Source: an uncultured Candidatus Rokubacteria bacterium
GTDB taxonomy: Bacteria > Methylomirabilota > Methylomirabilia > Rokubacteriales > CSP1-6
Direction of reading: 5' to 3'
DNA length: 64,000 nt
Assembly (NCBI GenBank): GCA_963762145.1
Contig: CAVXJS010000014.1
Span: 544,001-608,000, forward strand
In this document: one piece after another, positions 38,793 to 39,311 of the stretch
Position numbering within the stretch: the first letter of the stretch is position 1
Layout: each line of letters opens with the position of its first letter
The notes under the pieces: generated by a model
What the model saw: the letters and a program-made list of their open reading frames with translations, nothing else
What the model was told of the DNA's origin: nothing
Database searches by the model: none
Made by a program: the position numbers and the translations under genes

Positions 38793-39311
38793 ATGGCGCG
38801 CATGCAGCCGCTTCCGATGCACGAGCTCGATGACGAGATCCGGCATATGTGCGAGGAGTCGGAGGCGCAGATCGGGACCTCGGCGAGCACGCGGACCTAC
38901 GCCCGGAACCCCGCGGTGGTGAAGGCGCTGGCCGCGTTCCGCGGGGCGCTCGTACGCGAGGGGACCATCGACCCGGTCATCCGCGAGCTGGTGCGGATCA
39001 AGATCGCGGGGCTCAACGCCTGTCGCTACTGACTCAAGGCGCGCTATGCCGGGGCCCGGCATGCGGGAGCGACCGAGGAGAAGATCGCGGCCATCAACGA
39101 CGAGACCTCCGAGCTCCTCACCCCGCGCGAGCGGGCCGCCGTCCGCTTCGCCGAGAAGCTCGCGGTGGATCACCAGAAGGTGGATGACGCGCTCTGGGCC
39201 GAGCTGCGCGCCCAGTTCTCCGAGGCCGAGGTGATCGAGCTGGTCGCGCACACCACGCTCTACATCGGCTTCGGCCGCTTCAACGAGATCGTCGGAATCG
39301 ACCCCGCCTAG
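38793..39311 (+). CDS. AhpD/carboxymuconolactone decarboxylase-family selenoprotein (CxxU; TGA 39030-39032 read as Sec)
   Basis: RELVRIKIAGLNACRY-TGA continues in frame as LKARY...LTPRERAAVRFAEKL...VDDALWAELRAQFSEAEVIEL...GRFN to TAG 39309-39311, giving a complete 172-aa CMD fold. AAGGAGG RBS. Confidence 0.85.
39033..39069 (+). promoter_or_regulatory. Putative bacterial SECIS element
   Basis: Directly 3' of the UGA: CGC-(U bulge)-AUGCCGG-GGC-CCGGCAU-GCG hairpin, G-initial loop about 20 nt from the UGA, possible CUC/GAG lower pairing. Confidence 0.7.

Follow-up and report, generated by a model that had tools for sequence, protein, structure and literature searches.

An in-frame UGA in a CMD/AhpD-like gene of Rokubacteria is very probably decoded as selenocysteine

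We analyzed a Rokubacteria DNA stretch of 64,000 nt, hereafter called the window, to which all coordinates refer. On its plus strand, positions 38793–39311 very probably constitute one gene encoding a 172-residue selenoprotein of the CMD/AhpD-like type, in which the UGA at 39030–39032 is decoded as selenocysteine (Sec). Judged from comparative sequence evidence, we assign this reading a probability of roughly 0.93. A selenoprotein of 172 amino acids (aa), truncated by gene callers, had been proposed before from the letters of the window alone (the original prediction). It is supported here by orthologs, by the selenocysteine machinery of the genome, by metagenome contigs and by the Cys residue that homologs carry at the position of the TGA, all of which agree.

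Results

A CMD/AhpD-like reading frame continues beyond an in-frame TGA

The open reading frame (ORF) starts with an ATG at 38793, 5 nt downstream of a Shine-Dalgarno-like AAGGAGG that was read from the sequence (38781–38787, plus strand). It comprises 79 codons up to the in-frame TGA at 39030–39032, which represents codon 80. Beyond the TGA the same frame remains open for 92 further codons and terminates with the TAG at 39309–39311, whose last base is shared with the GTG start codon of the downstream ORF (39311). The read-through product, encoded by 172 codons followed by TAG, is 172 aa long and includes the motif N-A-C-R-Y-U-L-K-A-R-Y-A-G-A-R-H-A-G. The first residue of its CxxU motif, C77, is encoded by TGT (39021–39023) and is invariant across an alignment of 84 sequences. 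The original prediction had described a 79-aa ORF stopping at the TGA, 92 more codons and the TAG/GTG overlap, as well as a hairpin with a bulged U and a G-initial loop about 20 nt downstream of the TGA. All of these coordinates were confirmed from the sequence, and the hairpin was found as described, at 39042–39065 and with a spacing of 20 nt.

A single CMD domain (Pfam PF02627) spans the TGA. The match covers aa 40–121 and profile positions 1–83 of 84, with an E-value of 8.6e-18 and a score of 64.6 bits against a gathering cut-off of 23. Each half of the protein alone also matches this profile, the part preceding the TGA at positions 1–40 and the part following it at positions 46–83. AlphaFold2 modeling based on 84 aligned sequences returned one continuous all-helical fold with a mean pLDDT of 96.1 and a pTM of 0.90. 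When this model was compared with solved structures by Foldseek, the best matches were AhpD-like or peroxidase-related proteins, with query-normalized TM-scores (TMq) of 0.86 for 2oyo, 0.85 for 2prr, 0.83 for 6k40 and 0.79–0.80 for 3c1l. Among the NCBIfam models, the protein passed the AhpD core-domain model TIGR00778 (34.9 bits; cut-off 27.8). The best NCBIfam match was NF053654, designated YciW-related (seleno)protein, which aligned over the full length, yet the score of 75.6 bits stayed below the cut-off of 310. Scores for TIGR01926 (peroxidase-related enzyme; 59.4 bits, cut-off 81.8) and TIGR00777 (AhpD proper; 13.2 bits, cut-off 191.95) were likewise too low, and the protein fell below the cut-off of every NCBIfam equivalog or subfamily model. 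Fold and motif point most likely to a predicted thiol/selenol oxidoreductase of the AhpD type.

The TGA coincides with the redox-active Cys column of the family. The closest solved protein by sequence is PA0269 (2o4d; E = 2.9e-14), whose C-A-Y-C motif has its second Cys aligned with U80. A scan of 1.84 billion representative proteins returned 3818 matches at E ≤ 0.001; the best 150 of these were taken, 94 of which have a length of 140–260 residues. In these 94 full-length homologs the TGA column is occupied by Cys in 84 cases, 80 of them within a CxxC motif, and otherwise by Glu (3), Ser (2), a gap (2) or Phe, Gly or Trp (1 each). Accordingly, the placement of the TGA at the second Cys of CxxC by the original prediction held true, and its question as to whether homologs carry Cys or TGA at this column was answered with Cys for these distant full-length relatives. 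Even the nearest full-length Cys homologs are merely 35–39% identical to the protein of the window.

AhpD proper possesses a His residue four positions past the second Cys. In the protein of the window the corresponding residue 84 is Arg, and this also applies to the nearest full-length Cys homologs (C-R-S-C-M-A-I-R-Y), indicating that Arg at this position is a trait of the subfamily. For the same reason we rejected the idea that Sec forms, not requiring a base, had lost the His.

The TGA is kept in all orthologs and the frame downstream of it is under purifying selection

A search of 60 related genomes retrieved 16 full-length orthologs with 69–94% identity, each containing one TGA, and in addition one copy that is split by a frameshift. 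Together with the window copy this makes 17 coding sequences (CDS), all of which have the TGA at codon 80. A subsequent scan of a species collection yielded 31 loci, again with the TGA at codon 80 in 31/31; 13 of them repeated earlier loci and 18 were new, raising the total to 35 distinct CDS. The 31 loci all reside in records titled as metagenome-assembled genomes (MAGs) of Methylomirabilota or Rokubacteria, or binned under a different name. The TGA is kept together with the hairpin following it in 35/35 distinct orthologs; close orthologs devoid of both, which the original prediction had regarded as speaking against it, were not seen.

The median dN/dS ratio (nonsynonymous versus synonymous substitution rate) relative to the window copy, determined from 34 pairs, amounts to 0.17 for the codons preceding the TGA and 0.19 for those following it. 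The similarity of both values indicates that translation continues past the TGA. Across the 35 orthologs, 156 of 170 codons are variable at the third position. In contrast, codons 84–89 are invariant. The longest invariant run of nucleotides in the entire gene comprises 20 nt (39042–39061) and corresponds to the core of the hairpin, the next longest measuring 4 nt. The sole change affecting the stem is found in ortholog L049, in which CAT is replaced by CAA, opening the outermost pair. As far as can be judged from the alignment, invariance of synonymous sites in the hairpin codons goes beyond what conservation of the protein explains.

Seven orthologs with 78–94% identity (L104, L105, L106, L108, L116, L119 and L129) are deposited under other titles, namely as Acidoferrum, Verrucomicrobiia, Limnocylindria, Deferrimicrobiaceae, Nitrosocosmicus and Dormiibacterota MAGs. 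Mis-binning of Rokubacteria contigs is a more likely explanation for these titles than transfer of the gene.

A hairpin with features of a bacterial SECIS element follows the TGA

The hairpin CGC-U-AUGCCGG-GGC-CCGGCAU-GCG (39042–39065, plus strand) begins nine bases past the TGA. It is composed of a lower stem of 3 bp (39042–39044 pairing with 39063–39065), a bulged U at 39045, an upper stem of 7 bp (39046–39052 pairing with 39056–39062) and the apical loop GGC (39053–39055), which is located 20 nt from the UGA. The selenocysteine insertion sequence (SECIS) elements of the fdhF/fdnG type in E. coli are hairpins situated within the CDS just 3' of the UGA, with a small G-initial loop and an unpaired U below the upper stem. 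The hairpin of the window resembles them in its position in the CDS, the small loop starting with G and the unpaired U, but differs in having a loop of three nucleotides, GGC, and an unrelated sequence. According to the available text of a 2026 review, the bacterial SECIS (bSECIS) model demands an apical loop of 3–9 nt, an upper stem of 4–16 bp, a G within the first two loop positions, 16–37 nt between UGA and loop, and a minimum free energy (MFE) of at most −7.5 kcal/mol (PMC13188914). With its 3-nt loop GGC, 7-bp stem, 20-nt spacing and −14.3 kcal/mol, the hairpin complies with all constraints given there (PMC13188914).

The MFE of −14.3 kcal/mol was calculated for the 24-nt hairpin alone and corresponds to z = −2.19; 8 of 200 shuffled sequences fold equally well. 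On the comparative evidence the hairpin is nonetheless more than a product of chance: this rests on its invariance among orthologs and its covariation among paralogs, folding energy providing weak evidence. As a test for the hairpin, folding energy was dropped in favor of position and covariation, given a z of −0.72 for a 61-nt stretch and mean MFEs that do not separate Sec from Cys forms.

Paralogs share the position of the hairpin, and its stem covaries

The genome to which the window belongs contains ten CMD-like matches, six of which have an in-frame TGA. In all six the TGA occupies the second position of the motif: C-R-Y-U, C-A-R-U, C-P-F-U, C-V-H-U and, twice, C-E-F-U. To compare paralogs more broadly, we assembled 62 loci from this genome and its relatives, comprising returned loci as well as 20 stop-free and 20 TGA-containing matches. 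They provided 39 distinct downstream sequences of Sec forms and 21 of Cys or other forms. In the 39 Sec forms, which represent about eight subfamilies, the TGA is located exactly at the Cys column, and stem sequences differ between subfamilies. When the best hairpin was scored for a stem of 6–8 bp that starts 15–18 nt from the U of UGA and places the loop at nt 22–24, such a hairpin was present in 38/39 Sec forms versus 3/21 Cys or other forms. The average best stem comprised 6.7 bp in the former and 5.4 bp in the latter. The MFE fold of L052, the lone exception among the Sec forms, likewise shows a hairpin at this site, though an imperfect one. The loops of the Sec forms read GGC, GGG, GGA, GUU, GUC, GUG, CGUG, CGGG or AGGCC, i.e. 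they start with G[G/U] or N-G[G/U].

Fifteen Sec forms from five subfamilies share one register and were combined in an ungapped, codon-anchored alignment for covariation analysis. In this alignment 95.2% of the cells are paired, compared to 35–47% when the partner strand is slid by 1–3 columns. Compensatory changes affecting both sides occur in 6/7 stem pairs, and the covariation score of 0.822 was reached by none of 500 shuffled alignments (0/500; score in shuffles 0.185). The first base of the loop is an invariant G in all 15 sequences.

In a quick maximum-likelihood tree of the 62 rows, the orthologs of the gene form a clade of their own with full support. The Sec/Cys label requires three changes on this tree, whereas shuffled labels require 19 on average. 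From these sequence comparisons we would give about even odds to a scenario in which the gene represents one branch of an old radiation of Sec-containing CMD proteins in the Rokubacteria order, with a single origin of Sec. If this holds true, Sec and SECIS would have been inherited through repeated duplication rather than gained many times, and some Cys forms, such as that of locus L074, would have reverted recently and retained a fossil SECIS. The family would then offer a natural series for studying how a SECIS located within a CDS and the encoded protein evolve together.

Several individual paralogs deserve mention. The five further TGA paralogs of the window's genome (L025–L029; contigs C14, C21 and C9) each possess a hairpin at the same distance. 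L028, a C-E-F-U paralog, passes NF053654 (337.3 bits; cut-off 310) and is the only one of the five to pass an NCBIfam selenoprotein model. Locus L074 (G050:C5:111320-112073) is a Cys form with the motif P-C-R-Y-C, its Cys being encoded by TGT. It has a 9-bp hairpin at the place of the SECIS, one base off the position scored above, and its close relative L073 carries a degraded version of this hairpin. The L074 hairpin may represent the fossil of a SECIS that outlasted a change from Sec to Cys. Finally, L055 and L060 (genomes G050 and G041) are Sec forms whose first Cys is replaced by Ser (S-P-Y-U), so that the selenol would be devoid of its usual resolving partner.

The genome encodes a complete selenocysteine machinery

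All components for Sec synthesis and insertion that the original prediction had suggested looking for are present in the same genome, and all score above their curated cut-offs. The selA gene (577 bits) adjoins a full-length selB (363 bits), and a tRNA-SeC gene with anticodon tca (69.3 bits) is located nearby. There are two selD genes (G000:C11:419505-420437, L010; G000:C14:136744-137655, L011); one of them contains an in-frame TGA of its own (341 bits; Sec-containing SelD), the other does not.

We propose that these components would act on the gene as follows. In the mRNA, the hairpin inside the CDS, with its 7-bp upper stem, GGC loop and bulged U and its loop 20 nt past the UGA, would be bound by SelB carrying Sec-tRNA(Sec). 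SelB would deliver Sec to the UGA at 39030–39032 in competition with release factor 2. In the product, C77-x-x-U80 would form a redox center where a helix begins, at the site occupied by CxxC in AhpD-like proteins. The protein would function as a thiol/selenol oxidoreductase, e.g. as a peroxide or disulfide/selenenylsulfide reductase, with Sec80 replacing Cys. Whereas the gene structure, the conservation of the TGA, the purifying selection following it, the constraint on the hairpin RNA and its covariation, the machinery and the fold are shown here, we infer that Sec is actually inserted and that SelB binds the hairpin, and likewise the type of substrate and the parts played by C77 and U80 in catalysis.

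Points against selenocysteine decoding and alternative explanations

Several points weigh against decoding of the UGA as Sec. To begin with, the presence of selenium in the product is a prediction. By folding energy the hairpin does not stand out: a z of −0.72 was obtained for the 61-nt stretch, 41 of 200 shuffled versions being equally stable, and in 51-nt windows the mean MFE is −18.5 kcal/mol for Sec forms and −19.2 kcal/mol for Cys forms. No SECIS family of Rfam matches the hairpin; the Rfam matches were limited to chance miRNA-like ones on an inverted repeat (38687–38778), far under their gathering scores. The hairpin codons encode a conserved Y-A-G-A-R-H, and their conservation is in part a matter of the protein. 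The orthologs, with 69–94% identity, are close kin and hence not independent. In two of them (L050 and L133) the frame is shifted at a point past the TGA, and in a third (L045) a TAG occurs already four codons ahead of the regular end; these three may be assembly errors or decayed copies. The AlphaFold2 model was built with Cys replacing Sec at position 80. Forty of the paralog rows were hand-picked from the match list and are not a random sample. One locus, L061, derives from an unpublished genome (G029) and contributes 1/15 covariation rows, 1/39 Sec forms and 1/62 tree rows, although no claim depends on it alone. Finally, a single public record (P0009) reads Arg at the TGA column and stops soon after.

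Alternatively, one of the ordinary amino acids, e.g. Trp, Cys or Gly, could be inserted at the TGA, either through a changed genetic code or through near-cognate suppression, in which case the hairpin would merely slow down the ribosome. Three full-length public calls (P0002–P0004) read W at this codon, and selenium incorporation is predicted rather than measured. However, TGA terminates the gene itself in 7/31 ortholog loci, the others ending with TAG or TAA, and it terminates 4/6 of the TGA paralogs in the window's genome. As TGA ends both orthologs and paralogs, it is a working stop codon in this lineage. An ordinary residue is also at odds with the complete Sec machinery of the genome, with the restriction of the codon to the redox Cys column and with the agreement of the hairpin with the bSECIS constraints. 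We consider this explanation very unlikely.

A second explanation is that the gene is broken or split, the TGA acting as a true stop that leaves a 79-residue fragment or two polypeptides, with the downstream frame being a decaying remnant. This is how gene callers treat it. Public protein sets contain N-terminal fragments ending with ...CRY and C-terminal fragments starting with (M/V)RYAGARHAG, and in some relatives an ATG or GTG at the position of R84 is used as start by the callers (P0010, P0019 and P0023). Other public records skip the TGA region as if it were spliced (P0005 and P0006) or join the C-terminal to the N-terminal fragment (P0007); P0058 was set aside as an error-rich sequence that is uninformative on the TGA column. 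Together with the frameshifts in L050 and L133, such records might suggest a split gene. However, there is no start codon at the callers' position in the window, where the codons are GCG CGC. A nonsense mutation would be expected to drift, yet the TGA is kept in 35/35 orthologs and stands exactly at the Cys column in the 39 Sec forms. The downstream part is constrained as strongly as the upstream part (dN/dS 0.19 versus 0.17), and a single CMD domain with a single compact fold extends across the stop. A split gene is therefore extremely unlikely. Decoding of the UGA as Sec implies instead that almost all public protein sets contain the gene in split or truncated form, and that the same applies to the five TGA paralogs of this genome, so that redox capacity is under-called in Rokubacteria. 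The truncation by gene callers that the original prediction had anticipated is borne out by these sets, which mostly hold fragments divided at the TGA.

Reliability of the sequence was assessed using metagenome contigs. Contigs of two DNA studies bridge the TGA without any difference (X1, 38898–39167; X2, 38749–39167), and no alternative letter was observed at 39030–39032 or within 39041–39067 in metagenome contigs. A TGC, TGT or TGG at the codon, which according to the original prediction would have undermined it, is contradicted by the TGA in these independent studies. A co-occurring strain differs at 39037–39040, changing K-A to T-L as in other orthologs, while TGA and hairpin are kept. A contig from an RNA library (X15, 38738–38968) is identical to the window; RNA-library contigs are no evidence of transcription. 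Contigs of relatives in X17 cover 38818–39029 and 39078–39229, and the gap at 39030–39077 between them proves nothing. That the true codon is TGC or TGT and the hairpin a chance GC-rich palindrome is hardly conceivable, for even though the source genome is a metagenome-assembled bin (88% completeness, 5.4% contamination) and chance hairpins abound in GC-rich sequence, the same TGA recurs in 35 independently assembled orthologs, the contigs of both studies match without a difference, and the hairpin covaries across paralogs.

Relation to known AhpD-like selenoproteins

AhpD-like CxxU selenoproteins were reportedly described in the Sargasso Sea selenoproteome in 2005. The GOS (Global Ocean Sampling) selenoproteome, as presented in the portion of the paper available, lists the families AhpD-like 1 (COG2128; 299 genes) and AhpD-like 2 (pfam02627; 70 genes) (PMC2398784). 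CxxU AhpD-like proteins are thus a recognised selenoprotein class, as the original prediction had assumed (PMC2398784). Likewise, the available text of the 2026 review refers to several AhpD-related Sec families with NCBIfam models, and to a Methylomirabilota MAG predicted to hold 63 selenoprotein genes (PMC13188914, citing Deng et al. 2026). Going by the descriptions contained in these sources, the gene resembles the Sargasso and GOS AhpD-like 1 and 2 sets in the PF02627 domain, the CxxU motif with Sec in second place, the existence of Cys homologs and a SECIS located downstream within the CDS. By the same descriptions it is set apart in two respects. Those sets stem from marine metagenomes, while the subfamily studied here has turned up solely in Methylomirabilota/Rokubacteria MAG records; and four residues past Sec it has Arg instead of His.

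Two further relatives allow for a closer comparison. NF053654 (GroundWater_YciW) matches over the full length and better than any other NCBIfam model, but the protein scores far under the cut-off and belongs to a separate, well-supported clade; its identity to the NF053654-passing paralog L028 is about 27%. PA0269 of Pseudomonas aeruginosa (2o4d and 2ijc; 7xw1 is titled AhpD) matches the model with a target-normalized TM-score (TMt) of 0.82–0.83, and in the sequence alignment U80 falls on the second Cys. In PA0269, Cys takes the place of Sec, and a His follows four residues past the motif. It is also shorter (145 aa) and lacks the N-terminal helices that the model of the window's protein shares with 2oyo, 2prr and 6k40.

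The literature covered on AhpD-like selenoproteins, Rokubacteria and Methylomirabilota does not name the subfamily, which BSepDB or Deng et al. 2026 could contain. The gene is a well-supported subfamily added to the known AhpD-like CxxU class, in a lineage already reported to be rich in selenoproteins. It leaves the knowledge of Sec decoding unchanged and illustrates cleanly, by comparison, a SECIS situated within a CDS; the main benefits are a correct annotation and the paralog series as material on SECIS evolution within coding sequence.

Gene neighborhood

The gene is flanked by a three-subunit operon of the xanthine-dehydrogenase/CO-dehydrogenase type, a ThiS/MoaD-like domain and a PF01663 protein. 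The latter corresponds to the downstream ORF (39311–40792, plus strand, GTG start), a member of the phosphodiesterase/alkaline-phosphatase superfamily that we treat as a neighbor. This arrangement is kept in 14/31 ortholog loci, comprising the closest relatives and L129. A functional link to the neighbors was rejected and no partner was inferred, as the arrangement occurs in only 14/31 loci. At the more distant ortholog locus L123 (4259–5515 and 5590–5973), a RidA/L-PSP gene (PF01042) is found upstream instead, and an ORF matching the Tle1-like phospholipase domain PF09994 is located further upstream of the RidA/L-PSP gene. A database protein, P0060, combines PF02627 and PF01042.

Upstream of the gene, positions 36119–38782 form an 887-aa ORF that consists of a xanthine-dehydrogenase/CoxL-type large subunit (PF01315, PF02738, PF20256) and a ThiS/MoaD-like domain (aa 780–856, ending with ...AIAGG). 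The linker between both is rich in Arg and His and apparently out of frame, and the ORF extends 31 codons past the GG into a repeat. The 887-aa ORF probably reflects a frameshift or an assembly join and not a true fusion. The repeat, an imperfect inverted repeat of low GC content and about 90 nt (38684–38780), is located between the GG end of the ThiS-like domain and the start of the selenoprotein gene. It has 78 matches on both strands of the window's genome, full-length copies being 72–83% identical, and at its edge the metagenome contigs spike in depth and continue into many different sequences. In these properties it looks like a palindromic element of the REP (repetitive extragenic palindromic) or MITE (miniature inverted-repeat transposable element) type.

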